64,000 nt of DNA from assembly GCA_021463145.1 (NCBI GenBank), contig JAJTWZ010000003.1, positions 35,319 to 99,318 of the forward strand, given 5' to 3'. Position 1 is the stretch's first letter. Each line of letters begins with the position of its first letter. Below, piece after piece: positions 5,893-44,802 of the stretch. The notes under the pieces were generated by a model. It was not told the DNA's origin and did not search any database. It worked only from the letters and a program-made list of their open reading frames with translations. The DNA is from Blastocatellia bacterium (GTDB lineage Bacteria > Acidobacteriota > Blastocatellia > UBA7656 > JADIYM01). The translations under genes and the position numbers were made by a program.

Positions 5893-5998
5893 CGGGAAGA
5901 CAGGGTCGCAGAGAAGAGATCCCGGACGAAGTTCTTCGTCCGGGATCCGGCGTCAGTACACCTTGTGCACAAGTAACGGGTAAGAGGCCTGAAGCGGT

Positions 5999-6868
5999 CT
6001 ATGGGAGGGCGTCGCCGCGCATTCGTCCGGTCAGATTCTCTTCGCGCTCGTCGAACGCCCGCCGGGCAGCTTCGGGCGCATTCGGCTTGATGCTGACGGG
6101 GCGCGCGGGAATGCCGGTCGCTATGTTGAAGTCCGGAATCGCCTTCGTCACGACTCCAAAGCTGCCCACCATCGCGTCGTCACCAACGCTGGTCCCCGAT
6201 AGGACGGTCGCGTGATATGTGATTCTGGCGCGATGGCCGATCGTCGTGCTGTCGGTGCGGACACTGTCGATTTCGACAATGTCGTGCGAGTGCGAATATA
6301 TGTTCGCGTAGTCCGAGATCGACACGTCATCCCCGATCGTTACCTTCCCGCGGTCGTCGATCAGCACGTTCTTGTGGACGACCACATTGTCCCCGAACGT
6401 CAGGTTGTAACCGAATGACCACTCCACGAAATGCCAGGATTTGAAGTTGGCGCCGACCTTCTCGAAGATGTACGGCGCCAGAACGCGGCGGAAGCGATGC
6501 CCGAGTCCCGCGTGCAATCCGGCCGGAGACCGGTCGAACATCTGCCACAGCCACGTCAGCGGTTTTCGCGGGTAGTAGCGCACCGGATCGCAGTTGGCGT
6601 AGTACTCGGGCTCGAGGGTCGTATTCCGGGGATCGAGGCACGCGAGCATCGATTGCGCGGCAAGCGAGAGGCTTGCGTCGTTGATCCGCTCGAAGTCGCC
6701 CGGCGTACCGAAGTAAAGATCGTGAAGCGTCGCCCGCACGAGCTCGTTCCGGTCGACAGCGTCGCTATTGAGCCGCTCTTCCAGTTCGAGCAGGAATCTA
6801 TCGAAGACCACCTCGGCTTCCGGAAGCGGCCTGAGCTGGCGAAACGGCATCGGAACGTACTTCGGCAT
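5999..6868 (-). CDS. hexapeptide-repeat (left-handed beta-helix) acyl/acetyl-transferase
   Basis: Repeated [LIV]GxxxxI hexapeptides (VTIGDDVSISDYANIYSHSHD…). GGGAGCG RBS precedes the ATG at 6868; the ORF is open to 6934. Confidence 0.7.
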   Translation of the reverse strand: MPKYVPMPFRQLRPLPEAEVVFDRFLLELEERLNSDAVDRNELVRATLHDLYFGTPGDFERINDASLSLAAQSMLACLDPRNTTLEPEYYANCDPVRYYPRKPLTWLWQMFDRSPAGLHAGLGHRFRRVLAPYIFEKVGANFKSWHFVEWSFGYNLTFGDNVVVHKNVLIDDRGKVTIGDDVSISDYANIYSHSHDIVEIDSVRTDSTTIGHRARITYHATVLSGTSVGDDAMVGSFGVVTKAIPDFNIATGIPARPVSIKPNAPEAARRAFDEREENLTGRMRGDALP

Positions 6869-6957
6869 CGGCTGATCGCTCCCGCAAAGTGAAATTCGAC
6901 CTGAGGTAATAGCCCCGTTGTCAGCGGGCGTCAACCCGCGGCGCCGGAACGGTTCGA

Positions 6958-8760
6958 ATGGCTGTGCTACGATCCGCCTCGATGCGAGCGCCGAGGATTC
7001 GGTTGGTTCTTGCCGGCGTCGCGGCGTCGCTCGCCGTCATTGCATTGGCCTGGTGGATGACGAGGCCGCGACCGAGCGTCGACATGGCCGGATTCGCTCC
7101 CGAGTCGGCTGCTTTGTACGTCGAGCTCAACAGCCTGCCCGACCTCGCGGAGGGACTCACCGAATCGGACGCGTGGGCCAGGCTCGCCGCACCGCTCGGC
7201 CTATCGAGTCAACTCGACTACGCCGGACCGGTGGCTGAGATGCTCGGCCGGTTCGAGCTGGGGTCAGACGACGCTGCCGTGCTCGGCCGTTCCCAGTTTG
7301 CCATCGTCGTGACGAGCATTTCAGCCGGCGCCGATGAAGAAGGCGACGCGGGCGCACTGGTGGTACGGCCTCGATTCGCGCTCGTGGTGAAAACGCACTC
7401 CGGTGCGTCGGCCGCAGAACGCATAGCGGCGGATCGCCTCCCTCAACTGGCTCGAAAGGCCTACGGCCCGGACGTTCCGATCGCGGAAGTGCCGGGACCG
7501 GGCGACCGGATGACATTCGCGCAGGGACCGGCGGCTGCGCGCCGAATGGTCTGGGCCACGAAGGAAGATGTCGTGATCCTGGGTAACGACGTCGACTCTG
7601 TCAGGGCCGTTCTGGACGCGAGCGCAACTCGCATCCCTTCGCTTGCGGGCTCGTTTCATCTCGAGAAGGCTCGGAAGCTGGTCGAGGCGTCGAACTCGCT
7701 CGTGTTCGCGTATGCATCCGCCGCGACCGGCGGAGATCTCGTGGCTTCGTCGCTTGGCGGCGTGACGCCGGAGGAGGCGCCGGCGGCTGGCTCGAGTGCC
7801 ACCTCCGATGCGCCTCCGCCACCTCTTGGAGGGCTCTTGTCAGGTATCGCGAAGGGCGCGGCTGTGGGCGTGGGTTACTCGGGGCGATTCGAGAACGGCC
7901 GCTTCGTCGAACGGACGGCGACGCTGCTGTCGCCGCGCATGGCCGAGGCGATGACGGCCACGGTCGTGCCGGCGGAGGGCGAGCCGACGTCGCTCCCATT
8001 GATTCCGGCAGGCATCGAGGAAGTCAACGTAGTCCGTGTCGCGCGACCGGGCGAAACCGTCGAGTCACTCCTCAATTCGCTGTCCGGCAGTGTGGACGTA
8101 GCGGTCAGCGCAACGCTGACGCAGATGGCCATCGGATCGCGCAGGGAATTTGGCGCGCAAGCGACGGACCTGGTGTCGCCGATGATTGGCAACGAAGTGG
8201 CATTTCTCGATTTCGGCAACGGCGACCCGTTTGCGGTTGCATTCGAAGTCGTCGACAGGGAAGGAGCACTGCCGGTGGTGGCGCGCTATCTGTCCGACGG
8301 AGGAAACCGCTCGACGAGCGAATTGTACGGAGGATTCGAGATCCTCAAGTCGACCAATGACGACGGCCGCTGCTTCGCATTCCTTGGGCGGTACGGAGTT
8401 TACGGAACGCGCGATCAACTCGTGAAAATGATCGACGCGCGCGCGGCGGGCGCACGCGAGAATTCCGATCTCGCAAGAGTATTGGCAGGTCCGCCGCCCG
8501 CAATCGTCGGAACCGAAAGGCGCGACGATCGCGACGCTCCCGAACTGCTTCTTGCCATTTCCGTTGCATTTCGCACGTCGGATGGCGCCGTCGACACGCT
8601 CGAGCGAGATGACGTGAAGACCGCAAGGAATGCACTTTCGCCCGCGACGAGCCGATGGGAACTTCGCGACCAGGCGCTAGTCGTCGAGTCGCGTTCCGCC
8701 GTTGGAAATCTCTCGTTCCTTACTTCCTTTCTTGCGGAGCCCTCCGAAAAGAAGTCCTAG
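6958..8760 (+). CDS. membrane-anchored hypothetical protein (600 aa)
   Basis: Long ORF with an N-terminal TM segment (LVLAGVAASLAVIALAWW). No recognisable catalytic motif. Composition is coding-like. Confidence 0.5.
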   Translation: MAVLRSASMRAPRIRLVLAGVAASLAVIALAWWMTRPRPSVDMAGFAPESAALYVELNSLPDLAEGLTESDAWARLAAPLGLSSQLDYAGPVAEMLGRFELGSDDAAVLGRSQFAIVVTSISAGADEEGDAGALVVRPRFALVVKTHSGASAAERIAADRLPQLARKAYGPDVPIAEVPGPGDRMTFAQGPAAARRMVWATKEDVVILGNDVDSVRAVLDASATRIPSLAGSFHLEKARKLVEASNSLVFAYASAATGGDLVASSLGGVTPEEAPAAGSSATSDAPPPPLGGLLSGIAKGAAVGVGYSGRFENGRFVERTATLLSPRMAEAMTATVVPAEGEPTSLPLIPAGIEEVNVVRVARPGETVESLLNSLSGSVDVAVSATLTQMAIGSRREFGAQATDLVSPMIGNEVAFLDFGNGDPFAVAFEVVDREGALPVVARYLSDGGNRSTSELYGGFEILKSTNDDGRCFAFLGRYGVYGTRDQLVKMIDARAAGARENSDLARVLAGPPPAIVGTERRDDRDAPELLLAISVAFRTSDGAVDTLERDDVKTARNALSPATSRWELRDQALVVESRSAVGNLSFLTSFLAEPSEKKS

Positions 8761-26674: not shown

Positions 26675-27976
26675 CTATTTCGCGAACAGAGGCCGGTAAC
26701 CGAGCAGTCTCGCAGGTTTGTTTCGTTTCGGAGTCATTGCGGCAAGCGCCACGAATCCGGAATCGGAGATGGCTGGACGTCCGATGGATCCCCACGTCGC
26801 AGGCTCGCCCGTCCAGACAACGCGTCCAGTCGCGGCGTCCAACGCCGAAAGTCTTACGTCGAGAGTGTCCGCCAACGCATCGCCGCCGGTGGATTTGACG
26901 ATCGGCCGTCGAAGCGCGCCGTAGTGAAATTCACTCGAAGGAAAGTAAATCCGCCCGCCGGCCGCGACCAGGTCGTCGGCTGCGGGGAGCGGCGCAACTG
27001 CAAATCGGGCCTTCAACTCTCCAGTCGCAAGTTCGTAGACCCGCAGGTATCCGTCTTCGAGCTCCGAGTTGCTCGCACGGCCTCGCATCGTTAGAAGTTG
27101 GGAGCCCGACAAGGTCGGCGGTATCGGACGGGAGGATTCGTAGGCTTCGAAACGCCAGCGCGAGGCCCCTGTTTCGGCGTCGAAGACGCTCCAACCTCGC
27201 CGGCCGGTCACGACTACGAATCCATCACTCACCTGGATCGCGGAGTTCGTGGTATCGATTGCCTGCACCCATCGCTCGATACCGCTCGGTACGTCGATCG
27301 CCGCAACTGTCGATCCTGACGTGACGAACGCTCTGCCCGCTATTGCCGCAACTCGTGAAGACGAGGAGAGTTGCTGCATCCATAACGGTTTCTTGTCGAA
27401 CAGGGTACGGCTCCCCGTTCGAGCGTCGAATGCGAGCAGTGAGTAACCGCGCCCAATCGCGTAGAAGCGGCCCCCGCCGGAACCGAGCACGGCTTCGATA
27501 TCGGCCTCGTTCCATAACTCGCGACCAGAGGTCGCCTCGAAGGCGCGAATTCGTCCGTCCTGCGATAAAACGACGGCCACATCGCCCTCGACGAGCGCAA
27601 ACGTTCCCGGACGATGCTCGCCATTCCTGGCTGCCAATGCTCGAAGGTCAAGGATCGTGTGAAAACGTTCGGCTCCGGTTGCCACCGAATAGACGACGAG
27701 CCGCAGTGGCTGAAAGTCGGAACTCAGATCGCCATCCGACCCCAGGCAGAACACCGCGTCTCCAGCGAGGGCAACCGTATCGACCTGGTTGAACGGCAAC
27801 TCGATATCCCAGTCGGGGCTAGCCCCGGCTCCCGAGCCACACGCCGACGTCAGGAGGGCAAGCGCAAGGAGGAAAGACCAGGCGAGAACATTACTCTCAA
27901 AGCCGCGAATCGGGCCGGGTGTCGGTGGAGAACAGCGGCGGGCAAACTGAACACGCTGCTTTGCTATTATCGGCAT
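26675..27976 (-). CDS. PQQ-like beta-propeller repeat lipoprotein (BamB-like)
   Basis: Lipobox (LLALALLTSAC|GSG). Repeated A.D..TG..LW motifs typical of PQQ/BamB propellers. The ORF is open to 28219; the proposed ATG is at 27976. Confidence 0.55.
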   Translation of the reverse strand: MPIIAKQRVQFARRCSPPTPGPIRGFESNVLAWSFLLALALLTSACGSGAGASPDWDIELPFNQVDTVALAGDAVFCLGSDGDLSSDFQPLRLVVYSVATGAERFHTILDLRALAARNGEHRPGTFALVEGDVAVVLSQDGRIRAFEATSGRELWNEADIEAVLGSGGGRFYAIGRGYSLLAFDARTGSRTLFDKKPLWMQQLSSSSRVAAIAGRAFVTSGSTVAAIDVPSGIERWVQAIDTTNSAIQVSDGFVVVTGRRGWSVFDAETGASRWRFEAYESSRPIPPTLSGSQLLTMRGRASNSELEDGYLRVYELATGELKARFAVAPLPAADDLVAAGGRIYFPSSEFHYGALRRPIVKSTGGDALADTLDVRLSALDAATGRVVWTGEPATWGSIGRPAISDSGFVALAAMTPKRNKPARLLGYRPLFAK

Positions 27977-27980
27977 CGAG

Positions 27981-30053
27981 ATGTCCGCCCTCGAGATCGT
28001 GATGCTCGTGGGGTTCGCGTCGGGCGCGGCCCTCCATCTATATATAACTTGGTTAATAGCGCGGCGCGAAGATCGATGGGGTCCCGAGCCGGCATTCGTT
28101 GCGCTCGGACTCACTCTAGGTCTGTGGCACGCCGGCAGTCTGATTGCAGCACTGCTGCGTATACTCGGCGTGCCGGACGGGAACGTCGTGCTGCGCGTCT
28201 CGGACACGCTGGTATTCACGGCGCTCGCGTTCCTCCCGGCCTCGCTGGCCCACGCCCACGTCGCCTTTCTCGGTTGGCGCGACGGTTATCACCGCTTCAC
28301 GCGCCGGCTGGTTCGCTCCTTCACGATTCTGGGCTATTCGCCGTTGGCGCTGCTTCCGTTTGCGCTCGGGCGGCTCTGGCACAGCGTGTACGCCAGTCCC
28401 GTCGACGCAATGGGACCGTGGCTCATAGCCTTTTCGATCTGGCACGTGGCGGTTCTGTTCCAGGCTTCGATCGTGGACAAGTTCCTGCGCCGGTACTTCA
28501 CTGACCCGCGTGAGCGCGACTTCTTCGACCGCCTGTCGGCCGCTCTTGTCGTGATCGCGGTCTTCTATCTGATCGTGTATCCCGGCGGGCTGCGACAGGT
28601 TCCATCCATTGGACCGTGGCTGGAAGTTCTCGTACAGCTGGCGTCAATCGTGCCGACTACGATCGTGGCGTACTACATTTTCCGTTACAACCTCTACAAG
28701 CTCGTGATTCAGCGCAGCCTCGCGTACGCATTGCTGGCTGGCATCGCGGCGGTCGTCTACGTTTTCGTGGTCCGCTCTTTCGATCAGTATCTCGTCGCGG
28801 CTTTCGGTGCCCGGCCAGGAGTGATCGAGGCCATCGGTGTCGTATGCATGGTTCTCGTGGCCTGGCCGATGCGGCGGCTGATGGACCGAAGCGTCCGACA
28901 TCTTTTCGTGACCGAAATTGGACACTATCGAACGGTCGTGGAACAGGTCTCGACGGAGTCGCACAGTTTCAATCAGCTCCGCGAGCTGCTGCCGTACGTA
29001 GAGACGGTTGTAACTAGAGCCCTGGGAGTCGATGCGGTCCGAATCAGGTTGGCCGACGGTAACGACGAGACACAGCACGGAGATCTCGACGAGCGCGCCT
29101 TTGCGGCACTGTGGCACGAGATGGTTAGGGATCGGCTGGATTTTGCGGAGGATGGCGCAAGGCTCGCCGCGCTCGGTGCAACGGCCGCGTGGGGACTATG
29201 GCGTGATGACGACATGGTCGGCGTCATGCTCATAACGGCGAGTCCAGGGACGCTCGACGACCAGCGAACGGCCGTGCTGGGCGTGCTTTCGGGGCAGATT
29301 GCGACGGCAATCGAGAACACCCGCCTTGTAGAGGAGAAAGTCAGACTCGAGCGAGCATTGATGACGAAGGAGCGGCTCGCTTCGCTCGGGCAGATGGCGG
29401 CAACAGTCGCTCACGAGATCAAGAATCCGCTCAGCGCAATCAAGTCCATAGTTCAGGTGCTCCGAGAGGAATCCAGTGGCGCGGGACAGGACGAGGACCT
29501 TCGGCTGATAGTCGGGGAAGTGGACAGACTCAATCGCACGGTGACCCAGCTCCTGAGCTTCTCTCGCCCGGCAATCGCGGAATCGACGCCAGCCATGCTC
29601 GGCGAGATCGCGAAGACGGTTGGCCGGCTTCTCGATCCAGACGCACGCGCTGGAGGCGTCAACGTGGGGATGCAGGTCCATGGGGATAGGCTGGTGAGCG
29701 GGGCGACATCGAACGCCCTGCGCGAGGTGCTGATCAATCTCGGGTTGAATGCGGTTCAATCAACTCCGGACGGTGGACACGTGGAGATCCGGATCGACGG
29801 TGGCGGCGAGACGGTTCGGCTCAGTGTCGAGGACACTGGCGCAGGAATCCCCGATGAACTCCAGTTGAAGGTACGCGAGCCGTTCTTTACGACCAGGCAG
29901 CGAGGAACCGGCCTCGGCCTTGCCATCGTCGAACGTAGGCTCACGGAGTTGGGTGGCTTCATGCGCATCGAGAGTCCGATAACGTCAGGACTTGGTACAC
30001 GTGTCAGTTTCGAGATCCAGGCAGAACTCCTGGAAGGATCACCTCGGAGCTGA
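27981..30053 (+). CDS. sensor histidine kinase (multi-TM sensor, GAF, HisKA, HATPase_c)
   Basis: N-terminal ~300 aa polytopic membrane domain, a GAF-like region, H-box (AATVAHEIKNPLSAI), N/G boxes (NLGLNAVQS; DTGAGIP; GTGLGLAIV). Confidence 0.8.
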   Translation: MSALEIVMLVGFASGAALHLYITWLIARREDRWGPEPAFVALGLTLGLWHAGSLIAALLRILGVPDGNVVLRVSDTLVFTALAFLPASLAHAHVAFLGWRDGYHRFTRRLVRSFTILGYSPLALLPFALGRLWHSVYASPVDAMGPWLIAFSIWHVAVLFQASIVDKFLRRYFTDPRERDFFDRLSAALVVIAVFYLIVYPGGLRQVPSIGPWLEVLVQLASIVPTTIVAYYIFRYNLYKLVIQRSLAYALLAGIAAVVYVFVVRSFDQYLVAAFGARPGVIEAIGVVCMVLVAWPMRRLMDRSVRHLFVTEIGHYRTVVEQVSTESHSFNQLRELLPYVETVVTRALGVDAVRIRLADGNDETQHGDLDERAFAALWHEMVRDRLDFAEDGARLAALGATAAWGLWRDDDMVGVMLITASPGTLDDQRTAVLGVLSGQIATAIENTRLVEEKVRLERALMTKERLASLGQMAATVAHEIKNPLSAIKSIVQVLREESSGAGQDEDLRLIVGEVDRLNRTVTQLLSFSRPAIAESTPAMLGEIAKTVGRLLDPDARAGGVNVGMQVHGDRLVSGATSNALREVLINLGLNAVQSTPDGGHVEIRIDGGGETVRLSVEDTGAGIPDELQLKVREPFFTTRQRGTGLGLAIVERRLTELGGFMRIESPITSGLGTRVSFEIQAELLEGSPRS

Positions 30054-30112
30054 ACCCGGCTGGCGGCCATGGAACGATGAAAACAGCCGCTGTTCCCATA
30101 TTTGGCCGTTCG

Positions 30113-30141
30113 GTTGACACCCTCTGTGCGGGTCCGTACAT
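30113..30141 (+). promoter_or_regulatory. putative sigma-70 promoter of serA
   Basis: TTGACA (30113-30118), a 17-nt spacer, then TACATT (30136-30141). A GGGGAGGA RBS follows before the ATG at 30176. Confidence 0.4.
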
Positions 30142-30175
30142 TGCCCGCTTCAATTGACGGGGAGGACTCTTCGCC

Positions 30176-31756
30176 ATGCGCGTGCTCGTGACCGACAACC
30201 TGGATCCAATCGGTGCGGAGGTGCTGTCTCGCGACGGCACCATCGTGGTTGACGTCGATCACGGCATTTCGCCGGAGGGTCTACTGTCGTGCATTGGAGA
30301 CTATGACGGGCTTGTCGTGCGTTCGCGGTCGAAGGTGACAGCTGCCGTAATCGAAGCTGGAACGAAGCTCAAGGTGATTGGCCGAGCGGGAACTGGCGTC
30401 GACAACATCGACGTTGCGGCCGCTACTCGTCGCGGCATCGTGGTAATGAACGCCGCTGCCGGAAACACCGTCACGACAGCCGAGCACGCAATCGCATTGA
30501 TGATGGCGCTGGCCAGGAATATTCCGATCGCGTCGGCGACGACGAAAGCCGGAGTCTGGGAAAAGAAGAAGTTCACCGGCGTAGAAGTCTTCAACAAGGT
30601 GCTTGGCATAGTTGGAATGGGCAAGATCGGCTCCGTGGTGGCAAATCGCGCAATTGGCCTGGGTATGCACGTCGTGGCCTACGATCCGTATCTCACTGCC
30701 GAACAGGCGGCAAAGACCGGCGTGGAACGGGCTTCACTCGACGAGCTGTTCGCAAAGGCCGACTTTGTCACCGTCCACACTCCAATGACGGCGGAAACGC
30801 GAGGGATCATCGGCAGAGAAGCCTTTTCCCGGATGAAACGAGGCGTTCGAATCGTCAACTGCGCGCGTGGAGGGCTCGTCGACGAGACCGCGCTTTACGA
30901 AGCGCTGATGAGTGGCAAGGTCGCCGGGGCGGCCTTGGACGTGTTCGAGAAAGAGCCAGTGGCGCCCGATCATCCGCTTCTACAGCTTGATTCCGTCATC
31001 GCCACTCCGCACCTCGGGGCGTCGACCGGAGAAGCTCAGGCGGGCGTGGCCGTGCTGATCGCCGACCAGATGGCGGATTACTTGTCGAGGGGAACAATCC
31101 GTGGCGCGGTCAACTTTCCGGCGCTCGGGGCGGAGCAGCTCGAGCAGCTCCGCCCGTACCTGTCGCTCGGCGAAAAGCTAGGAAGCTTCGTCGGGCAGGC
31201 CTTCGGCCACGATCTTACGGAGATCGAAATCGAGTTCAGCGGTGTCGTCGCCGACTACGACGTGCGGCCGATCGCGGATGCCGTGCTAAAGGGGCTGCTG
31301 TCGCCGGTCATCGAGAGGATCAACTTCGTGAACGCGTCTGTCATAGCGACGGAGCGTGGAATTCGCGTCCGTCAGACGACCGACCGGCACGCCAGGGACT
31401 ATACGAGCACGGTATCGATTCGCACGAAGATCGAAGGCGTAGAGCACGAAGCGGTTGGAGCAGTGTTTGGAAGCAGGGATGTGAGGATCGTCCGCGTGGA
31501 CGGTTTCACCCTCGACGCGATTCCCGAAGGTCACCTGGTCCTCACGCGAAGCCGCGATGTTCCTGGGGTGATTGGCCTGATAGCGACAGGACTGGGAGAT
31601 GCGGGCATCAACATTGGCCGGTTCTATCTTGGCCGCCAGGCCGCGGGTGAAGAGGCGATGGCGCTGATTCAGGTCGACGGTCCGGTGGAAGCCGGGCAGA
31701 TTGACGCGATATCGCAACTGCCAAACGTGTTGTCGGCGCGCCGCATCCGTCTTTGA
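30176..31756 (+). CDS. serA: D-3-phosphoglycerate dehydrogenase
   Basis: 526 aa 2-hydroxyacid dehydrogenase with NAD-binding GxGxxG (GIVGMGKIGS) and a C-terminal ASB/ACT regulatory domain. Confidence 0.9.
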   Translation: MRVLVTDNLDPIGAEVLSRDGTIVVDVDHGISPEGLLSCIGDYDGLVVRSRSKVTAAVIEAGTKLKVIGRAGTGVDNIDVAAATRRGIVVMNAAAGNTVTTAEHAIALMMALARNIPIASATTKAGVWEKKKFTGVEVFNKVLGIVGMGKIGSVVANRAIGLGMHVVAYDPYLTAEQAAKTGVERASLDELFAKADFVTVHTPMTAETRGIIGREAFSRMKRGVRIVNCARGGLVDETALYEALMSGKVAGAALDVFEKEPVAPDHPLLQLDSVIATPHLGASTGEAQAGVAVLIADQMADYLSRGTIRGAVNFPALGAEQLEQLRPYLSLGEKLGSFVGQAFGHDLTEIEIEFSGVVADYDVRPIADAVLKGLLSPVIERINFVNASVIATERGIRVRQTTDRHARDYTSTVSIRTKIEGVEHEAVGAVFGSRDVRIVRVDGFTLDAIPEGHLVLTRSRDVPGVIGLIATGLGDAGINIGRFYLGRQAAGEEAMALIQVDGPVEAGQIDAISQLPNVLSARRIRL

Positions 31757-32081
31757 CATCGATTGACTTGCGCCAGGAGTGTGCTGAGCCGTCGTGGCTG
31801 GTTCAACCTCCCGCTTCCCTTGGTCCAGGCTTCGAGAGTTTGCAATTTGTGGGACGTAAGTACTGACACTTTTTGTCAGAATGACCGATCACGGCCAAGT
31901 GACGGGTGTCATGGATCTCCGGATTTCAGATCAAATCACTTACATTTGGCTGGGATTTTGCCAGTAGTCATTTCAGCTGGTGATTTTGAGACGAAATGCC
32001 CCGACTCAGGCGCGAAAATTGCCTAGTGTCCGATCCAGAAGGGTTTCACAGCGGCTCGAATCCAAACCTGAGGGATCTTAC

Positions 32082-32801
32082 ATGAGTCTCGGATCGGGCG
32101 ATTTTCGAAAGCGCGGCCGACTGGAGTTGCATATTCCGGTCCGGGTTCGAGTAAAGGAGACGGATGGGCGGGAGTGGGGGGAACTCTCGCACATTCTGGA
32201 CGTGACTCAGATTGGCGCCTCATTCACTCTCGATGGGCACATCGAACAGGGTCGAATCCTTCACCTTAGCCTCCCGCTGCCATGGCGTCTCCGCCAATTC
32301 GATCATTCGGAAGAACTGTATCGAATCTACGCACTCGTCCGATGGGTGCGCCCCCGCGACGAGGGAGGTTACGCGGTTGGAGTCGCTTTCGTCGGCAAGA
32401 ATCCTCCGGCGAGCTGGATCCATGATCCGTCGCGGATTTATGGGACGTCGAAGGTCGATGACGACAACATTCCTCAGCCGCCCTCGCGAGAAGGTGTGGA
32501 TGACAGGCGCGAAGGCCGGATTCAGGCGGCGTTGATGGTCCAGCTCGATCTGCTGGATGACAGGGGGCACTCGGTAGGGTCGGAAGTGACAGTCACCGAG
32601 AACATCAGCCGGCATGGCGCGGCCTGCTATACGTCGATGAAGCCCAATCCTGGCAGTCTGGTTCGTGTGACGTCTCAGCAGACCGCCTTCGCAACGAATG
32701 CTGTGGTGTTGCGATGCCGCACCGGTGAAGACAATATTGCCCGGGTTCACCTGGAGTTTCAGGACGGCGAGTGGCCGCTGGATATTGACGACGCCGAATA
32801 G
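32082..32801 (+). CDS. tandem PilZ-domain protein (putative c-di-GMP receptor)
   Basis: GAGGGA RBS lies 7 nt before the ATG. There are two RxxxR…(D/N)x(S/T)xxG PilZ signatures (RKRGR…DVTQIGA; DRREGR…NISRHGA). The ORF is open from 31980. Confidence 0.6.
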   Translation: MSLGSGDFRKRGRLELHIPVRVRVKETDGREWGELSHILDVTQIGASFTLDGHIEQGRILHLSLPLPWRLRQFDHSEELYRIYALVRWVRPRDEGGYAVGVAFVGKNPPASWIHDPSRIYGTSKVDDDNIPQPPSREGVDDRREGRIQAALMVQLDLLDDRGHSVGSEVTVTENISRHGAACYTSMKPNPGSLVRVTSQQTAFATNAVVLRCRTGEDNIARVHLEFQDGEWPLDIDDAE

Positions 32802-32853
32802 GGCGTCCCGATTGCCTACGATCCCGCACTGACGCAGCGGTTCGCCCCTGAGC

Positions 32854-32896
32854 GTCGGCGCCTCGGCTTTCTTCCTCCTGAGAGCCGAGGCGTCGG
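32854..32896 (+). terminator. putative intrinsic terminator after the PilZ gene
   Basis: Inverted repeat CGCCTCGGCT-N14-AGCCGAGGCG followed by a T-rich stretch. Confidence 0.3.
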
Positions 32897-33231
32897 TCTG
32901 TTGATCGAGCCCCAGGCCAGGACCGAATCGGGCGTAGAAGGTGTGCTGGCGAGATCGGCGGGAACTGATTTCGGCAGGGACCGGTTGACAAGAACCGGAT
33001 CTGTTTTCAGTTGCGCCTCGCGCGGGGCACCGGTCGAACCGCCCTCGGTTCCTGGATGCCCGCCTGGGTGAATCGATCTCCCGAACCGGGACGCCGATTC
33101 TGTGCGAGTCCGCGACCCCGCGGCCTCGAGTCGACGTCGCCCTCCGCATATGACGGTGCCTGGATTACCTATTTCTCTAGCTAACTAGCGATTATTGAAA
33201 ATAGCCGGCTTGCTGTGGTATCCAAATCGCC

Positions 33232-34194
33232 GTGAATCGATCGAAGCAAGGTGGTGAACCCAGTGGCATAGTCCTCAGGCGGGCCGCCGGTCTTCCGGTT
33301 TACCTTCAGTTGGTTGACCAGTTCAGATACTTGATTGCCGCCGGTCGCTTCCGCGTAGGTGAATACTTGCCCCCGATGCGACAGATTGCGGACGAAATCG
33401 GGCTCAACTTGAACACGGTCCTTCGTGCGTACTCCGAGCTTCAGCGCGACGGACTCATTCGGAGTACGCGCGGGAAGGGCGCCGTGGTTATTCGCAGTGC
33501 CCCAGTCGTCTCGCCGCCCGCGAATCCTGGCGCGGAGGGCTGCAGCGATTCCATCGACGAAATCATTGCGACCGCAGTCGAACGGGCATTGTCGGCTGGA
33601 TTGAACCCGTCCGATGTTCTTGCTCGAACGCAAGCGGCCATCGATTCAGCCGGGACTCGGGCGCCGACGGGGCCGGCGGTCGTGGTACTGGCCGCGCCAG
33701 TCTGGCGCGCGCGTGTTTTCGCCGACGCGCTTCGCGCTATCGGCCTCGGGCGCGTGCGCGCCGCTTCCCCTCAGGGTGCAATTGCCGCGAACGAGATAGT
33801 CGTTCTGCCGGTGTTCGGAGTTACTGCCCCTGAAAGCGATGCGGTCGGCGCGCCGACATTGACTGTCAGCGTGCAACTCGACCGGGCCTCGATCAGGGAG
33901 TTGCTCGAGCTCGACCCCCGCGCGGTCGTAGCTGTAGTGGCAGGCGATGAGGTCGCGGCTAAATGGCTCTCGGATGCCGTAGCGGGCTATGCCGGCAGTG
34001 CAAGGATCAATCGCTTAGTTGCGGAGACGCAGGCAGAGGCTGAGGTGGGGGAGGCGTCAGTTGTGGTGGTGGAGGCCGGAATGCCGAACGGGGGTCGTCT
34101 GATATCGGCTGCGCGGCTAATCATGGCCGGTGTCTCGATTCCGATCTCGTTCGCGGAGTCACTCGGAGAGTTGGCAGAGACGCTCAAGCAGTAG
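33232..34194 (+). CDS. GntR-family transcriptional regulator
   Basis: N-terminal winged-HTH typical of GntR (LPPMRQIADEIGLNLNTVLRAYSELQRDGLI). GTG start. The C-terminal domain is unclassified. Confidence 0.7.
   Translation: MNRSKQGGEPSGIVLRRAAGLPVYLQLVDQFRYLIAAGRFRVGEYLPPMRQIADEIGLNLNTVLRAYSELQRDGLIRSTRGKGAVVIRSAPVVSPPANPGAEGCSDSIDEIIATAVERALSAGLNPSDVLARTQAAIDSAGTRAPTGPAVVVLAAPVWRARVFADALRAIGLGRVRAASPQGAIAANEIVVLPVFGVTAPESDAVGAPTLTVSVQLDRASIRELLELDPRAVVAVVAGDEVAAKWLSDAVAGYAGSARINRLVAETQAEAEVGEASVVVVEAGMPNGGRLISAARLIMAGVSIPISFAESLGELAETLKQ
33843..33858. repeat. 16-bp GC-rich palindrome, 15/16 copy (GGTCGGCGCGCCGACA), inside GntR gene
   Basis: Read directly from the sequence. Frame GTC GGC GCG CCG ACA (VGAPT). 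Confidence 0.9.
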
Positions 34195-34334
34195 CCGCGC
34201 TAGTGTGCCTCGCTTGGGGCGCTGAGGATTAGTGGCCGGTCCAGGCCTGCGCGAGGCGCGAACTCTGCTGACCTTGCCGGCGCGTAAGTGCGGGCGTGTT
34301 GAATGAAGCCGTCCTGGCGCCCGACCTTTTTTCG

Positions 34335-34378
34335 TTGACGGCTGACCTGCGGTCGGTTATTTTCCGACCAGCGGTCAG
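34335..34378 (+). promoter_or_regulatory. putative promoter overlapping a nested palindromic operator upstream of the TetR gene
   Basis: TTGACG, a 16-nt spacer, then TTATTT. This overlaps CTGACC-tgc-GGTCGG-ttatttt-CCGACC-agc-GGTCAG (34342-34378), a nested inverted repeat. Confidence 0.35.
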
Positions 34379-34393
34379 TAAGCGAGGTAAGCG

Positions 34394-35068
34394 GTGGCAG
34401 TTTCGATCCGACAGAGAGCCCGCAACACCGAGCACAAGTTGGAGCGACGTGAAGCGTTGCTCGCGGCTGCTCGCGAGATCTGGGATCTGGGCTCCTACGA
34501 GTCCACGACGATGGCCGGAATTGGTCAACGTGCCGGCGTGTCAAAGGCTACGGTATACCTGTATTTCGACACCAAGGAGCAACTTCTGCTCGAGATACTT
34601 CGAGAGAAGCTCGAAGACTGGTTCACGGCGCTCGATGGCGCGCTGGATTCGTCGTTCGGGTCCTGGAGCAGTGATCGCGCGGCGCGAGAGATAGCGCTCT
34701 CGTTCGAGGGGCGAAGGTCGCTCGTCCGACTCCTTTCGTCGCTTGAATCCGTTATCGAGCACAACGTCGATGTCGACACGCTTCGTGTCTTCAAGCGATG
34801 GTTTGCCGGCCGGACGTCGGCAACGGGGCAGCGGCTCGAACGTCGGCTGACGTTTCTGCGTCAGGGAGAGGGCGTCCACCTGATTCTTCAGATTCGCGCG
34901 TTTTTGCTTGGCCTTGCGATGCTCTCGGCGCCGTCACCGGCGACCGAGCGGGTGATCGCCGACGACCGGAGTCTTGCGCTTTTCGCGCTCGACTTCGATC
35001 GCGAGTTCACGGACGGACTCCGAACGCTGTTTCGTGGCTACGAGGCGGGCGGATCCGCTTCTGGTTGA
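34394..35068 (+). CDS. TetR-family transcriptional regulator
   Basis: N-terminal TetR HTH (ESTTMAGIGQRAGVSKATVYLYFDTKEQLL). GTG start, close to the RBS and possibly leaderless. Confidence 0.75.
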   Translation: MAVSIRQRARNTEHKLERREALLAAAREIWDLGSYESTTMAGIGQRAGVSKATVYLYFDTKEQLLLEILREKLEDWFTALDGALDSSFGSWSSDRAAREIALSFEGRRSLVRLLSSLESVIEHNVDVDTLRVFKRWFAGRTSATGQRLERRLTFLRQGEGVHLILQIRAFLLGLAMLSAPSPATERVIADDRSLALFALDFDREFTDGLRTLFRGYEAGGSASG

Positions 35069-36924
35069 CCTCCGGGCGTGGCCCATTAGTTGAGCAGTCG
35101 CACGCCCTTTGCCGATTTAAGAACTGGCGACTTGCGGCGCCTTAATTTACGTGGAACCTGAGATCTGCGTCGCTTGCTGCGCCTCTCTGAGAAGTTACTT
35201 CCAGTGAGCGAAGGCATCTAGCTCTCTTCTATTGATTTTCCCGGCGTCGCTGGCGATGGAGAGAAGGGAAAGGGCGCTCAAACCGGTGTATGCCAGGAAG
35301 GTTCCTACCTGAGATCAAGACTGGAGGACGCGTGACCCCGGTCGGGGTTGAGCCGCACGACCGGATCCGCTCTCGGTGAATGCCCGCATTTCGATTCCGG
35401 TGGCCATTGCGCCTCATCCTGGATGCTTCTCGAGGTGCAATGCAGATCAGCCGCCAGCTACAGCTGGATCAGGCACCTGGATCGAAACTGTTCAGTTGCT
35501 GGTGCGCAACCTGCCTTCATCGGACGCGACTCGGCTGGCAAAGGCCATTGCGTGTCCAGCCGTTTCGTGCGCAACATCGAGTGATACTTGATTTCCTGAC
35601 CAACAACTAATCGCAAACAAAAGCGAACTGGCAGTTAATGCGTGATCGTGAGGCCGGCCTTCATCGACCGAGAGCCACCTGATGACGCGATACAGGGGGT
35701 TCGGCCGGGCAGGGACGGCCCATTTTCGTGCATTACCGCAATAGTCACTATGGCCTGCATTTTGGAAAGCCCGCGGATTGGCGACCCGCCGTCTCGGGCG
35801 ATGTTGGGAGGCAAATGCCGGCGTCGGTGCGTGCGACCAGGGCGGAACGTCTCGGTCAGTTCGGCGACTTTCAGGATCTCTGACGTTCGGCGAGATTCTA
35901 GCGATGCACTCGCACGAGTGCGTGAGCTCAAGAGCCTGGCCGGAAGTCAACTCCGGCGATCGGAAAGGCCTGTTCTCGCGAAAAACCGGAAACGCCTGCG
36001 TTGCGAAGTCGATTACGGTACGAGGCGCGAAGACTGGCGCGAGGAGCCTGCCGGGCCACCAGCGGCCAGTCCTTGTAGCCGTTTCCCCGAATGCAGCCGT
36101 GGTGACTGGGAATGACGGCACCCGCAAAGGATCGAGCGGAGAGATCGATCGCTGGTTGCTATTCAGGTGCAGGCAGCAGACAGGCTGCTCTTGTGCTGAG
36201 CGGAGTGCGCCTCAGTGCCGTGCACTGAAGGAACAAGGTGATACTCGAGTTTGGGATGTGAGATTCTGAGGGGCTCGATGTTGAACTTCTCCAGAGAGAC
36301 AAGGGCGGACTGAGATGCAGACTGGACCGCCTTGCGGTCGGAATCTGCTGGAAGTGGGTCGCAGTTAACCGAATTGTCTCGCTCGGACCACCCGGCTCCG
36401 CTTCGACAGGTGGCTCGAGCAGGAGAGCAAGAGACTCGAATTCGAGATCTGCGGGCAAAACGGTTAAGTGACCGATCGAGAACCGGACCAACTCTGATGG
36501 CTCAGCAGGCGAGGTTTACGCCCCGATTTACCGCGTGCCGTCGCTTTGTCTGGACGCGGGCGCAGATTCGAGCGCCGCAGCGCTCAGCAAGTTGGGATGA
36601 CTCGCGGCCACGCGTGCACAGCGACCGCGATTCCGATGCCTCTAATCGGCGCGAGGCCCGAACTGGGAGATCCCTCAAACGCGCCCGGAGCTTCCAGTTG
36701 CGGACTTTGCCGCCACGGGAATCTCCCAGCCCGAGTGCGCCTCGATCCCAACGGGGACCGACGGAAATGAAACTATCGCCCCGGCGCGCGACTCAACGCA
36801 GCGCACGACTCGGGAATCACGAATGAGCTCGAGCAGTGAAGTTCAACGAGAGATAGGTGTGCACACGGCCTACAGGTTGGCCGCATATCGGATGACCAAG
36901 CGCCCCCCTTCGCTTCAGAATCAA

Positions 36925-36940
36925 TGTCGGCGCGCCGACA
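36925..36940. repeat. 16-bp perfect palindrome TGTCGGCGCGCCGACA, non-coding copy in gene-free block
   Basis: Read directly. The flank caaTGTCGGCGCGCCGACAgcgccgtgg resembles the flank of the copy at 40980. Confidence 0.95.
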
Positions 36941-37555
36941 GCGCCGTGGCTGAGTCCCGGCGAACGCCACTGGGATTGTCAGCTTGCGTCAATCGTTTCT
37001 ACTCGGGTGCTTCGACATGTGGCAGTCGGGAGTGTGGCGGGAGAGGGAACTCGGACCGGAACGACAGGGGGTTGATCGCCGTGTGCCTGAGTAAGGAGTC
37101 GTATTTCAATCCGGCACGTGCACGGCAATGATCGTGTGTGGCAATGTGTCCTGACACTAGGCCGATGCTCTCTCTCAATGTCCCCAAAGTGCACCCCGAC
37201 CCCGCTGAGAGGGGGTGCTCAACTGCACCGAAGACCATCAGCAATCCGTCGCAGTTGACTCGCCGTCAACCTGGGACGGGCTCGTCAGGTTCAGATTGCG
37301 GATTGGGATCCAAAAACGGCAATGATGGCCGACATGTTGAGGCGCTTCGGTTCGCGTGGCACTAGAGGATCAGAGGCGAGCTGAAATGCTATGACGCCGC
37401 TTGAGTGTGCGTATAGTAAACTGCTGCCGTGGAACGCGAAAACGTATAGAGCTCTGGCGGAACTTTAAGTCGGATCAAGCCGGTTCCGCGTATCGGAAAT
37501 CGAACTCTGGTCTCCCTAAGAGGCGGTCGAGCGCTTAAACTCCCCGGCAATTCAG

Positions 37556-38329
37556 TCAGAGTGTACGCGTCTGACCGCCATCGACATCGACTATCGAGCC
37601 GTTGCAGTAGCCGGCGGCCTCCGAAGCCAGGAATGCAACGACGCGCGCTACCTCATCAGGCTCTCCAAAGCGTGAAACGCGCAGGGCGCCGGCTATTGCC
37701 TCCGCCGCCTTGTGCTCGTCGATGCGGCGCTCGTTCGCCGTGCTCGAGACGCGCGCCTTCAGCCTCTCGGTGGCAATCGAACTCGGATTCACGGCGTTCA
37801 CGCGCACGCCGTCGCGAACGCCGCGATCGGCGAGAGCCTTCGTAAGATTGAGCAAGGCAGCGTTTACGGATCCGCCGATGGTGAAATCGGCACTTCCAGT
37901 TCGGCCACCGATTCCCACAACGTTCACGATCGAACCGCGAGTCGCCATCAGATGTGGCCAGGCGGCACGACTGCAACGTACCGCACCCCTGAATTTCAGC
38001 GAGAACCCCAGATCCCACTCCTCGTCCGTCAGTTCAAGAAAGTCCCCTCGCCTGGTGTCTCCGGCATTGTTTACGAGGATGTCGAGTCGCCCGAAGTGGC
38101 GAATTGCCGATTCAACTGCTCGCTCAGGCTCGCCCGGTTCTCGTAGATCCATCGAAATCCGGAGGTTCGGCGATTGGAGCACCTCGCCAAGCGCCTCGAG
38201 TGCGTCGGCCGATCGCGCAACTAGAACAACCAGTGCGCCTTCGCCGGAAAACGTTTCAACAATCGCACGACCTATTCCGCGACTGGCGCCGGTGACTAAA
38301 GCAACTTTTCCGGAAAGGTGTAGATCCAC
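37556..38329 (-). CDS. SDR-family short-chain dehydrogenase/reductase
   Basis: TGxxxGIG (VALVTGASRGIGRAI), NNAG and catalytic S…Y..K-like motifs. 257 aa. Confidence 0.8.
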   Translation of the reverse strand: MDLHLSGKVALVTGASRGIGRAIVETFSGEGALVVLVARSADALEALGEVLQSPNLRISMDLREPGEPERAVESAIRHFGRLDILVNNAGDTRRGDFLELTDEEWDLGFSLKFRGAVRCSRAAWPHLMATRGSIVNVVGIGGRTGSADFTIGGSVNAALLNLTKALADRGVRDGVRVNAVNPSSIATERLKARVSSTANERRIDEHKAAEAIAGALRVSRFGEPDEVARVVAFLASEAAGYCNGSIVDVDGGQTRTL

Positions 38330-43202: not shown

Positions 43203-43964
43203 GTGACGCCAGTAATTGCCGTAGCAAATCAGAAGGGCGGTGTCGGCAAGACCACCACGGCGATCAACGTCGCCGCGGGGCTCTCGCTCCTCGGAAAGCG
43301 CGTCCTGCTCGTCGACCTCGATCCACAGGCCAATTCGTCGATATCGTTCATCGACGCGAGTTCGATTGGACTGTCGATCTACGACTTGCTGACGGATTCC
43401 TCGATCACCGTGAGCGAGTGCACGCTGGCTACATCGGTAGATGGGCTCTTCGTGCTTCCGTCGCGGATCTCGCTCGCCAAAGTCGAAGCCAAGCTGATCG
43501 GGGAATTCGACGCGCCATTTCGGCTGAAGGACCGGATCGATCCCGTGCGGCACAACTACGACTTCGTTATCGTCGACACGCCGCCGACACTCGGGTTGAT
43601 AACCGTCAATGCCCTTGTGGCGTCGTCTCACCTCATAATTCCGATCCAGTCCAGTTATTTTGCACTCGAAGGCACTGAAGACCTGCTTGAAACTGTCGAA
43701 AAGGTCAAGCAGCGCCCAAACCCTAATCTGCAGGTGCTTGGCGTTGTCATCACGCTTCACGACAAGCGAACAACACTTGCCCGTGACATCTACAGGCAGA
43801 TCTGCGGCGTTTTCGGCGACAAGGTATTCGATACGGTCATTTCGAAATCGGTACGGCTCGAAGAGAGTCCAGCCTACAAGGAACCCATCTTCACCTTTGC
43901 GCCAACTTCGACTGGCGCCAACGAGTACGCCAAGCTCTGCCAGGAGGTAATTGCACGTGTCTAA
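43203..43964 (+). CDS. parA: chromosome partitioning ATPase ParA/Soj
   Basis: Deviant Walker A (KGGVGKTTT). GGAGGAGG RBS. GTG start. Confidence 0.9.
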
Positions 43965-44802
43965 GCGAGGTCTTCCGACGGATTTCAAGCTCCGCCACGA
44001 CCAGCATTATGTCGAGCAACTCGCAACGCGCTCGGTCGGCGCTCCTATCGGTCGTCTGGTGCCGATAGACAGGCTGGAGCCCAACCCGGGTCAGCCGCGC
44101 GTCGAGATTGGCGACCTCACGGAGCTCATCGCTTCGATCAAGTCAGTTGGCGTTCTCGAGCCTTTGCTCGTGCGGCCGGCCGAGATCGGCGGACGGTTCA
44201 TGATCATATCCGGGGAACGTCGCTACAGAGCGAGTCTCGCAGCGGGTCTGCAGGAACTTCCCTGCATCGAGATGCACGTCGACGACCGTACTGTCGCTGA
44301 GATTGCCCTGATCGAGAACCTGCAGCGCAAGGACTTGACACCTTTCGAGGAGTCCGAGGGACTCGAGGCACTGGCCACTCGATACGGCTACACGCACGAG
44401 ATGATCGCTCAGCGAATCGGCAAGTCGAGGTCGACTATCACGGAAGCTCTTTCGATCGCCACGCTGCCTGCGGACGTCAAGGACATGTGTCGGCGCGCCG
44501 ACATCTCCTCGAAGTCGCTTCTCCTCCAGGTCGTTCGATTGAAGGATCACGATCAGCAAGTTGCGTTCGTGGAGCGAATCCGAAAACAGGGAATGACGCG
44601 AGACGAAGCCCGCGCCGCCCGAAAGCCGGAGGCCTCGTCGCGGCCTCGACCTTATGAGTTCCGTTATCAGCCGACTTCCAGGGAGTTCTCGATTCAGTTG
44701 CGCTTCAGGCGCGCGGAAGTTTCCGACGGCGAACTGGCAGATGCACTTCGCTCGGCACTCCGAGAGGTCGAAGAGCGGTTGAACGGGAATGTGAAGGGCT
44801 AA
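43951..44802 (+). CDS. parB: chromosome partitioning protein ParB/Spo0J
   Basis: ParB N-terminal GERRYRA box and an HTH ([25 protein letters not shown]). Overlaps parA by 14 nt. Contains one copy of the 16-bp palindrome at 44488-44503. Confidence 0.9.
44488..44503. repeat. 16-bp perfect palindrome TGTCGGCGCGCCGACA inside parB
   Basis: Read directly. Frame TGT CGG CGC GCC GAC (CRRAD). Confidence 0.95.

Follow-up and report, generated by a model that had tools for sequence, protein, structure and literature searches.

The window analysed here, a stretch of 64 kb of Blastocatellia DNA, contains a gene-free block of ~2.5 kb (35069-37555) lying between two convergent and intact genes. The left flank is a gene for a TetR-family regulator (34394..35068, plus strand), with TetR_N and TetR_C_34 matches on an identical product; its NCBIfam matches were the positive control of our six-frame scan, and its orthologs in relatives are 84-85% identical. 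The right flank is a gene for an SDR-family oxidoreductase (37556..38329, minus strand), with adh_short and NCBIfam matches on its product, which is 96% identical in a sister strain. The edges of the block were drawn exactly in an earlier sequence-only reading of this DNA: 35068 is the last position of the TetR ORF, and the minus-strand SDR ORF terminates at 37556.

That reading had described the interval as devoid of long ORFs, without GC bias at third codon positions and lower in GC than its surroundings, and the first two descriptions were confirmed. No ORF exceeds 211 aa (the longest is at 35492-36127, minus strand), and the longest stop-free stretch, 239 codons, is within the range of dinucleotide shuffles (206 +/- 48, p=0.21). 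GC is spread over the codon positions by 0.01-0.11 in the block against 0.16-0.30 in the flanking genes; the period-3 chi-square (60-360 nt) equals that of shuffled sequence, with coding controls 2-20 times higher, and codon-usage log-odds are negative for all long open frames of the block. Moreover, this is the sole stretch of the window above 1 kb that lacks a long coding ORF; the other apparent gaps contain ORFs of 350-530 aa. The drop in GC is present but small, 0.593 versus 0.615 for the window, and is the same as in pooled ordinary intergenic DNA (0.592).

The SDR-TetR interval in sister lineages

Relatives lack the block, and intact genes occupy its place, which is the outcome that the sequence-only reading had associated with pseudogenisation when it proposed an alignment to orthologous loci. 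Their gene order is SDR, yfhO (818-839 aa, PF09586), in some cases traces of a second SDR gene (SDR2), and TetR, with yfhO downstream of SDR, on the same strand and before TetR. The order SDR-yfhO-TetR was seen in L100/L101, L104/L105, L106-L108 and L012/L091, where the SDR is 70-73% identical and the SDR-to-TetR interval measures 2.9-3.4 kb, compared with 2.49 kb here. Where present, SDR2 overlaps the end of TetR. Its state varies: L011/L102 have an intact gene, L104/L105 a split one and L012 a frameshifted relic, while L100 lacks it altogether. At this locus, decay of genes is frequent.

A relic of SDR2 beside TetR was considered and rejected, the score of the block (50) being within the shuffle null (53.5 +/- 6.5), while 481 was obtained for the positive control, the L012 SDR2 relic. 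The idea that the block once held a gene or element controlled by the adjacent TetR regulator is not borne out either: yfhO is on the other strand and downstream of SDR, and no trace of SDR2, which overlaps TetR in relatives, can be detected in the block.

A relic of yfhO in the right part of the block

The segment 36583..37247 (minus strand) is what remains of the 5' third of yfhO; this relic corresponds to YfhO residues 24-247 and is interrupted by about ten frameshifts and one stop codon. It spans 665 nt, about a quarter of the block, and 69 of its 218 aligned codons (32%) are identical to those of the L012 ortholog. In a frameshift-tolerant profile alignment it scored 120.8 against 48.7 +/- 6.3 (maximum 73.5) for 150 dinucleotide shuffles, 11 SD above them; decoys were null-like (52.5 for the plus strand, 47.7 for the reversed profile), and the sister-strain copy scored 104.7. 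The best hmmsearch match in the relic, at HMM positions 111-137, exceeds 300/300 shuffles and contains the motif IPVAFAG, which is invariant in YfhO and retained in the relic alignment. Similarity was also obtained by tblastn with the L100 YfhO ortholog (E=2.6e-4), by hhalign against YfhO (E=0.0013) and by an nhmmer DNA profile (E=1.3e-4 in the window strain, 1.4e-5 in the sister strain), and tblastx gave two weak colinear matches between the relic and L012 7465-7772.

The YfhO profile is thin, consisting of four sequences only, three of them closely related, and an unrelated window coding for a membrane protein scored 106 in the frameshift-tolerant alignment. Because the alignment score is thus partly composition-driven, the relic is assigned on the strength of five concordant methods together with its position. 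The relic is on the strand expected for yfhO and begins as far from the stop codon of SDR as in relatives; a 53-nt DNA match to the L100 yfhO, which contains the 16-bp palindrome discussed below in exact form on both sides, is placed 580-632 nt from that stop in the window and 586-638 nt from it in L100. The remaining segment next to the SDR gene, 37248..37555 (minus strand), comprises the SDR-yfhO spacer and the first ~23 codons of yfhO, which are unalignable; the spacer length remaining is ~239 nt, and it is 207-319 nt in relatives.

Since it combines these frameshifts and the stop codon with short open frames (the longest overlapping one on the minus strand has 88 codons, 37002-37265) and no periodicity, the relic is a pseudogene. 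Plain tblastn of the L012 YfhO and L011 SDR2 proteins against the whole window gave no match in the block, ungapped-frame BLAST being unable, with a database of that size, to pick up so fragmented a relic. The curated Pfam YfhO model had no match in the six-frame scan at E<=10, a search of low power here because the model covers only residues 744-804 of the intact L012 ortholog; this C-terminal region has no detectable counterpart in the block. A decayed gene remnant had been among the identities proposed from the sequence, and this proposal holds for the 665 nt of the relic and would probably extend to the rest of the block; likewise, frameshift-tolerant searching, put forward there both as a check and as a possible refutation, reveals a disrupted gene that explains the right third of the block and may explain all of it.

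Divergence between two strains

A second strain (L092-L099), ~98% identical over 20 kb, carries the same block at nearly equal length (2487 bp in the window, 2483 bp in the second strain). The right part of the block differs between the two at 132 of 997 sites (13.2%) and by 8 indel nt, while in the nine genes to the right 118 of 1767 four-fold sites (6.7%) differ, and codon positions 1+2 by 1.2%. The right part diverges twice as fast as the four-fold sites (Fisher p=1.7e-8) and is therefore unconstrained. It evolves at the neutral rate or faster; its divergence above that of four-fold sites could also reflect an older allele introduced by recombination. Indels between the strains are 1-3 nt long in this part and some frameshifts are strain-specific; the quickest-diverging piece is 37248..37555, at 15.6%.

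The picture changes to the left. Over 9 kb of the window (27553-36552) there are 12 differences between the strains, 8 of which form a cluster of substitutions at 35243..35282 inside the otherwise almost identical tract, so that the left part of the block, nearly identical in both strains, carries no rate information. The breakpoint between the near-identical tract on the left and divergent sequence on the right is at 36553..36573; dense differences begin at 36573, where the last long identical run ends. The breakpoint thus lies ~10-30 nt from the end of detectable yfhO homology at 36583, and this adjacency is not predicted by simple decay. For the window's own strain, 10 of the 17 contigs with this SDR, from different sequencing runs, were compared; nine were 100% identical and one had a single mismatch, and hence they give no information on polymorphism.

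Origin of the block

The block is probably dead DNA from gene loss, mostly and perhaps entirely the remains of an old yfhO pseudogene. In the ancestor of this Blastocatellia group the SDR-TetR interval would have held a yfhO of ~2.5 kb, on the SDR strand and downstream of SDR, encoding a polytopic membrane protein of the YfhO family, and usually also an SDR2 overlapping the end of TetR. In this lineage yfhO would have been inactivated, after which substitutions, small indels and frameshifts would have piled up without selection; SDR2 was presumably once present here and has since been lost. The block would then be without RNA or protein function, the 16-bp palindrome inherited from yfhO and discussed below being the only piece of it likely to matter. 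Dead DNA is usually deleted by bacteria, and the survival of 2.5 kb until periodicity was lost is therefore somewhat unexpected.

The left 1.5 kb (35069..36582) makes up 60% of the block; it is non-coding. Most likely it is the further-decayed remainder of yfhO, with ~0.4 kb deleted; alternatively, it is unrelated filler. It shows no codon periodicity or codon-usage signal, six-frame scans with Pfam, NCBIfam and PHROGs gave nothing in it, and its long ORFs, searched against 1.84 billion representative proteins, match only their own ORF calls. Local alignment to YfhO residues 248-830 does not reach significance (p=0.07-0.29), and hhalign against YfhO gives nothing significant (E>=0.17). The global colinear YfhO score is weakly raised on the minus strand (z=2.1, p~0.03), against z=0.7 on the plus strand. 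Single-sequence scoring that extended YfhO over the whole block (172-190 versus 58-122 for decoys) was discarded, as the left part alone is null (z=0.4-1.4). The C-terminal two thirds of YfhO are poorly conserved (24-61% identity between L012 and L100, against 66-70% over the first 200 residues), so that non-detection is expected even if they are present in the left part.

A composite origin is an unlikely alternative explanation of the same features. According to it, only the right 1 kb would derive from yfhO, which would have been cut after about codon 250 with removal of its 3' part and of SDR2, and the left 1.5 kb would be unrelated, for example what is left of a mobile element, or DNA attached through illegitimate recombination. 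Significant similarity to YfhO or SDR2 is in fact missing to the left of 36583, where yfhO homology stops abruptly, and the coincidence of this point with the identity boundary 10-30 nt away is expected if a recombination donor had no homology to the left of the 36583 region. Moreover, the plus-strand GC skew changes sign, from positive over the left part to negative at 36450-36900, inside the relic. On the other hand, the block has neither terminal or internal repeats nor target duplications, there is no plasmid or phage DNA match, and the dinucleotide signature of the block shows the TA depletion of the host. The six-frame scans contain no transposase, integrase or phage family, but the same scans missed the yfhO relic, and the weak colinear YfhO signal of the left part falls on the correct strand.

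Two further candidates were rejected: a mobile element or prophage remnant, for which neither terminal or tandem repeats nor plasmid or phage similarity were found (protein scans being insensitive to old relics), and an oriC, as no DnaA box occurs in the block even when 1 mismatch is allowed, and the cumulative skew rises monotonically with no switch.

A 16-bp palindrome shared with the parAB region

The relic contains, at 36925..36940, an exact copy of the 16-bp palindrome TGTCGGCGCGCCGACA. The sequence-only reading had listed it among the local structures of the block; it is real but not particular to the block, as with up to 2 mismatches there are 9 copies across the 64-kb window against 0.2 expected, one of them inside parB. 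The intact yfhO of L100 carries the identical 16-mer at homologous codons, and this correspondence indicates that the palindrome of the block is inherited from yfhO coding sequence. Copies of the palindrome are arranged around parAB; they occupy matching positions in distant relatives and syntenic sites across the class, and L100 has the same four sites.

Chromosomal parS sites are 16-bp palindromes bound by ParB and clustered near parAB, with the consensus TGTTNCACGTGAAACA. TGTCGGCGCGCCGACA resembles them in being a 16-bp palindrome with TGT...ACA ends that occurs in many copies around parAB and once in parB; unlike them, its central 10 bases are wholly different, only TGT...ACA being common, and the likeness covers 16 bp and not the whole block. 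A search allowing 3 mismatches found no canonical parS in the window, nor did one allowing 2 in 1.33 Mb of related loci, and a literature search on the palindrome and parS in Acidobacteria returned nothing relevant.

Some of these observations would fit a block that is retained as DNA, as the carrier of one member of a conserved parAB-palindrome set and a possible ParB loading site: the excess of copies, their conserved places in the absence of canonical parS, the presence of the palindrome already in the L100 coding sequence, and its exact conservation in both strains, where it falls within the longest run without differences in the divergent part. We nevertheless regard such retention as very improbable. 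A 16-bp site cannot account for the keeping of 2.5 kb, the identical run is only 47 nt long and not significant alone (P=0.14), and the palindrome has been lost within the intact yfhO of L012, L104 and L106-L108, which means that it is dispensable at this position. There is a small chance that part of the block is retained for a reason, in that the TGTCGGCGCGCCGACA set is a putative non-canonical, parS-like centromere of Blastocatellia, or else that the left 1.5 kb is an unrelated, lineage-specific functional non-coding element with an edge that fixed the breakpoint at 36553-36573. The palindrome cluster is more interesting than the pseudogene itself, and its position around parAB, with no canonical parS in the region examined, offers a lead on chromosome segregation in Acidobacteriota.

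RNA-coding potential

A large structured ncRNA or a cluster of small RNAs had also been proposed for the block, and we find either hardly credible. What speaks for it is that the block is long, non-coding and located between convergent genes, which need no promoter there, and that it has kept nearly the same length in the two strains. A covariance-model scan with Rfam 15, of the kind proposed in the sequence-only reading, gave 0 matches at the gathering threshold in the whole window; at E<=10 no family matched apart from two chance miRNA models of 19-20 bits, and no tRNA or tmRNA was found. Folding shows no excess: in 160-nt windows the energy z averages -0.33 (plus strand) and +0.03 (minus strand), and the lowest value in 58 tests is -2.2; the flanking genes have more negative averages than the block. 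The numbers of promoter-like sites, terminator-like sites and short inverted repeats in the block are those expected by chance. The GTTGAC/GTCAAC inverted repeat is present, but at 37254-37270, 2 nt from the position first given, and its right arm is broken in the sister strain with no compensation. In addition, the comparable 1 kb diverges at twice the four-fold rate and accumulates short indels, part of the block is demonstrably ex-protein-coding, and relatives carry intact genes in its place. For 36553-37555 an RNA is close to refuted.

Comparison with known systems

YfhO proteins (PF09586) are tied to teichoic acid glycosylation in Firmicutes. The block agrees with the intact yfhO of sister Blastocatellia in position, strand, residues 24-247, the IPVAFAG motif and the shared palindrome; unlike them it has neither open reading frame nor constraint, and as a pseudogene it makes no protein. 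With OLE, GOLLD, ROOL and HEARO, the large ncRNAs of Rfam, the block has only its length and the lack of ORFs in common; it differs from them in having no covariance-model match, thermodynamic signal or conservation, and in being partly ex-coding.

A pseudogene derived from gene loss is a known kind of object, ordinary genomic debris. Old bacterial pseudogenes, or gene relics, have been described in decaying genomes such as that of Mycobacterium leprae, and the block shares with them frameshifts, stops, small indels, loss of periodicity, a neutral rate and intact syntenic orthologs in relatives. It differs from those relics in being isolated in a densely coding, free-living genome and in being old enough to go unnoticed in standard six-frame searches with Pfam, NCBIfam and phmmer. 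This calls for caution, because a relic without periodicity can evade six-frame Pfam, NCBIfam and PHROGs scans and even exhaustive phmmer, and is still recognisable through synteny and frameshift-tolerant alignment to orthologs of sister species. Moreover, gene callers convert dead DNA of this kind into orphan 'proteins' in public databases (P0005, P0007, P0009, P0130 and P0131).

Limits of the gene-free block and absence of coding signal

The block between the TetR and SDR genes (35069-37555) is an old pseudogene region. About a quarter of its length is shown to be one; for the other three quarters, this is the most parsimonious interpretation. The exact edges of the block are two stop codons, on the left that of the TetR-family gene (plus strand, 34394-35068) and on the right that of the SDR gene (minus strand, 37556-38329). 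The two genes are convergent, so that neither needs a promoter within the block. The sequence-only reading found no ORF longer than 211 codons and no third-position GC bias, and both observations hold: the longest ORF is 211 aa, the longest stop-free frame (239 codons) is not unusual against dinucleotide shuffles (206 +/- 48, p=0.21), and GC spread by codon phase is 0.01-0.11, versus 0.16-0.30 in flanking genes. The period-3 signal (chi-square, six scales, 60-360 nt) equals that of shuffled sequence, with eight coding controls 2-20 times above the block, and codon log-odds are negative for every long open frame, real genes giving +0.08 to +0.28 per codon. No other stretch of the window above 1 kb lacks a long coding ORF. 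GC content is indeed lower (0.593 vs 0.615), but the drop is slight and brings the block to the level of pooled ordinary intergenic DNA (0.592).

Gene callers predict 'proteins' of 91-209 aa in this DNA (35495-36127, 35778-36269, 36332-36826 and 36823-37131; in the second strain, L092 11372-11647). They stand as orphans in public collections (P0005, P0007, P0009, P0130, P0131), their homologs among 1.84 billion representatives being same-locus copies only.

The SDR-TetR interval in relatives

By its RecN relatives the window belongs to the Acidobacteriota, class Blastocatellia, and the closest public genomes show 69-70% RecN identity. The SDR protein of the window strain is carried by 17 contigs from various sequencing runs; nine of the ten same-strain contigs compared are 100% identical to the window, and L004 has one mismatch in 6.8 kb. 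Among the loci fetched from relatives, L100 and L101 have in this interval an 839-aa YfhO-family membrane protein gene on the SDR strand, and no SDR2, the second SDR gene; L104 and L105 have yfhO and a split SDR2; L012/L091 have yfhO and a frameshifted SDR2 relic, 52-65% identical to the intact protein; L106-L108 share the L012 layout, with yfhO and then about 590 nt up to TetR in which no gene is called; L011 and L102 have only SDR2, overlapping the TetR stop. The interval measures 2.49 kb in the window versus 2.9-3.4 kb in yfhO-bearing genomes.

SDR2 is found in the clade at every stage of loss: intact (L011 7487-8299; L102 7952-8761), split (L104 6351-7059; L105), frameshifted (L012 5021-5560) and absent (L100, 10502-10713, and the window), while the TetR regulator stays 84-85% identical. 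The proposal that the block once held a gene controlled by the adjacent TetR regulator is not supported: in relatives it is SDR2 that is coupled to TetR, and the block keeps no trace of SDR2, whereas yfhO lies on the SDR side.

A decayed yfhO in the right part of the block

When a YfhO profile built from four sequences was searched against the six frames of the block, the best matches fell on the minus strand, one at HMM 111-137 ('IPVAFAG...') and one at HMM 170-206, in a different frame but with an equal offset; the top score exceeded all 300 dinucleotide shuffles. We also implemented a frameshift-tolerant local alignment of profile to DNA, permitting +/-1-nt shifts, which scored 120.8 on the minus strand, against 48.7 +/- 6.3 (maximum 73.5) in 150 shuffles, 52.5 on the plus strand and 47.7 for a reversed-profile decoy; one unrelated 2.5-kb window encoding a polytopic membrane protein scored 106, so the method responds partly to hydrophobic composition. 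The traceback assigns YfhO residues 24-247 to 36583-37247 (minus strand), with 69 of 218 aligned codons identical to L012; one stop and about 10 frameshifts interrupt the alignment. In the sister strain the score is 104.7, over residues 58-253. Other methods agree: tblastn with the L100 ortholog (E=2.6e-4), hhalign of the open frame 36776-36988 with YfhO 111-137 (E=0.0013) and nhmmer with a DNA profile of the relatives' interval (E=1.3e-4 and 1.4e-5 in the two strains). Moreover, blastn matches a 53-nt segment to L100, and its distance from the SDR stop is 580-632 nt in the window and 586-638 nt in L100. The 308 nt between relic and SDR stop leave, after the first ~23 codons of yfhO that cannot be aligned, a spacer of about 239 nt, within the range of 207-319 nt in relatives.

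Six-frame translations of the block match no Pfam, NCBIfam or PHROGs family, the NCBIfam scan recovering both the TetR and SDR genes as positive controls. The Pfam YfhO model matches only residues 744-804 of 830 in the intact L012 protein (5612-8104), and such Pfam scans are therefore almost powerless for N-terminal yfhO relics. An exhaustive phmmer search, run with the seven longest open frames (1,132 aa in all) on 1.84 billion representatives, matched only ORF calls of the same locus; a concatenated query of a word-indexed database missed exact copies present there and carries no weight as a negative.

Divergence between two strains

The SDR search also returned a 96%-identical protein in a second strain (L092-L099), which has the architecture of the window and a block of 2483 bp. 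The strains are nearly identical over 27553-36552 (12 differences) and densely divergent from 36573 on. Within the block, the divergent part differs at 132 of 997 sites (13.2%), plus 8 indel nt, with 12.3% in the relic and 15.6% in the spacer; the nine genes to the right show 6.7% at four-fold sites (Fisher p=1.7e-8 against the block's divergent part) and 1.2% at codon positions 1+2, and ordinary spacers 1.3-9.0%. Indels are of 1-3 nt and some frameshifts are strain-specific. The right part of the block behaves as unselected DNA.

Relatedness over 27553-48000, compared with L092, is mosaic: near identity over about 9 kb gives way to 2-5% divergence (per 250 nt, in genes) that continues to at least 48000. 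The breakpoint falls inside the block, at 36553-36573, within 10-30 nt of the end of detectable yfhO homology. This suggests a recent recombination event that stopped where homology ended. Within the otherwise identical 9-kb tract, eight substitutions between the strains crowd into 40 nt (35243-35282), perhaps as a short conversion patch, perhaps as a mutation cluster. The SDR gene has 10 amino-acid differences between strains at just 3.1% four-fold divergence, and parB has none at 8.9%; constraint on SDR may have relaxed once yfhO, its neighbour downstream, was lost.

The left 1.5 kb and other readings

The decayed gene suggested from the sequence is borne out, by frameshift-tolerant search, for the yfhO quarter of the block; the left part (35069-36582) gives no significant match. 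Local alignment with YfhO 248-830 reaches p=0.07 (profile) and p=0.11-0.29 (single sequences), SDR2 scores at null level, hhalign of six minus-strand frames gives E>=0.17, and tblastx against all fetched loci returns noise. Detection power is low here because the C-terminal two thirds of YfhO are poorly conserved even among intact orthologs (24-61% identity, versus 66-70% for the first 200 residues). Alternatively, the left part would be unrelated DNA joined at about 36580, a reading supported by one fact: the strain-identity breakpoint (36553-36573) falls almost exactly where yfhO homology ceases to be detectable. Two weak pointers lean instead towards a more decayed remainder of yfhO: a global colinear YfhO score of z=2.1 on the minus strand versus 0.7 on the plus strand, and an hhalign match of 35833-35931 with YfhO residues 594-626 (E=0.17). 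If about 0.4 kb was also lost in a single deletion, this match would bring the remaining interval into line with the L100 layout.

A structured ncRNA or sRNA cluster, also proposed, is not supported. Across the whole window Rfam gave zero matches at gathering thresholds, and relaxing the limit to E<=10 brought up just two miRNA models, both chance hits; no tRNA or tmRNA was found, the mean folding-energy z of the block (160-nt windows) is -0.33 on the plus and +0.03 on the minus strand, flanking genes being at about -0.5, and promoter-like and terminator-like sites occur at chance level. For the right kilobase or so, between-strain divergence excludes a conserved structured RNA. Nor is a mobile element evident: plasmid and phage DNA show no resemblance to the block, and it has no terminal, direct or tandem repeats above chance. 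A replication origin was rejected, the block having neither DnaA boxes nor a skew switch.

A palindrome around parAB

The pseudogene block is an ordinary phenomenon; the item worth following is a 16-bp palindrome clustered around parAB. TGTCGGCGCGCCGACA has 9 copies in 64 kb (up to 2 mismatches) versus 0.2 expected, at 599, 33843, 36925, 38363, 40980, 41427, 44488, 52791 and 59574, both in spacers and within genes (parB, yfhO, a GntR-like gene), and centred on parA/parB (43203-44802). Canonical parS (TGTTNCACGTGAAACA) is absent from the window and from 1.33 Mb of related loci, and no mention of TGTCGGCGCGCCGACA was found in the literature searched; the palindrome is a candidate for a non-canonical parS or for some other conserved site of protein binding. 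Copies occur in L100 (845, 4352, 6920, 8396) and L011 (6151, 9343, 12068, 15575), and exact copies hold the same syntenic places in Blastocatellia of only about 45% RecN identity. In the intact yfhO of L100, exact TGTCGGCGCGCCGACA stands at the codons homologous to the block copy (…CRRAD…; DNA alignment), and the palindrome of the block was therefore inherited from coding sequence.
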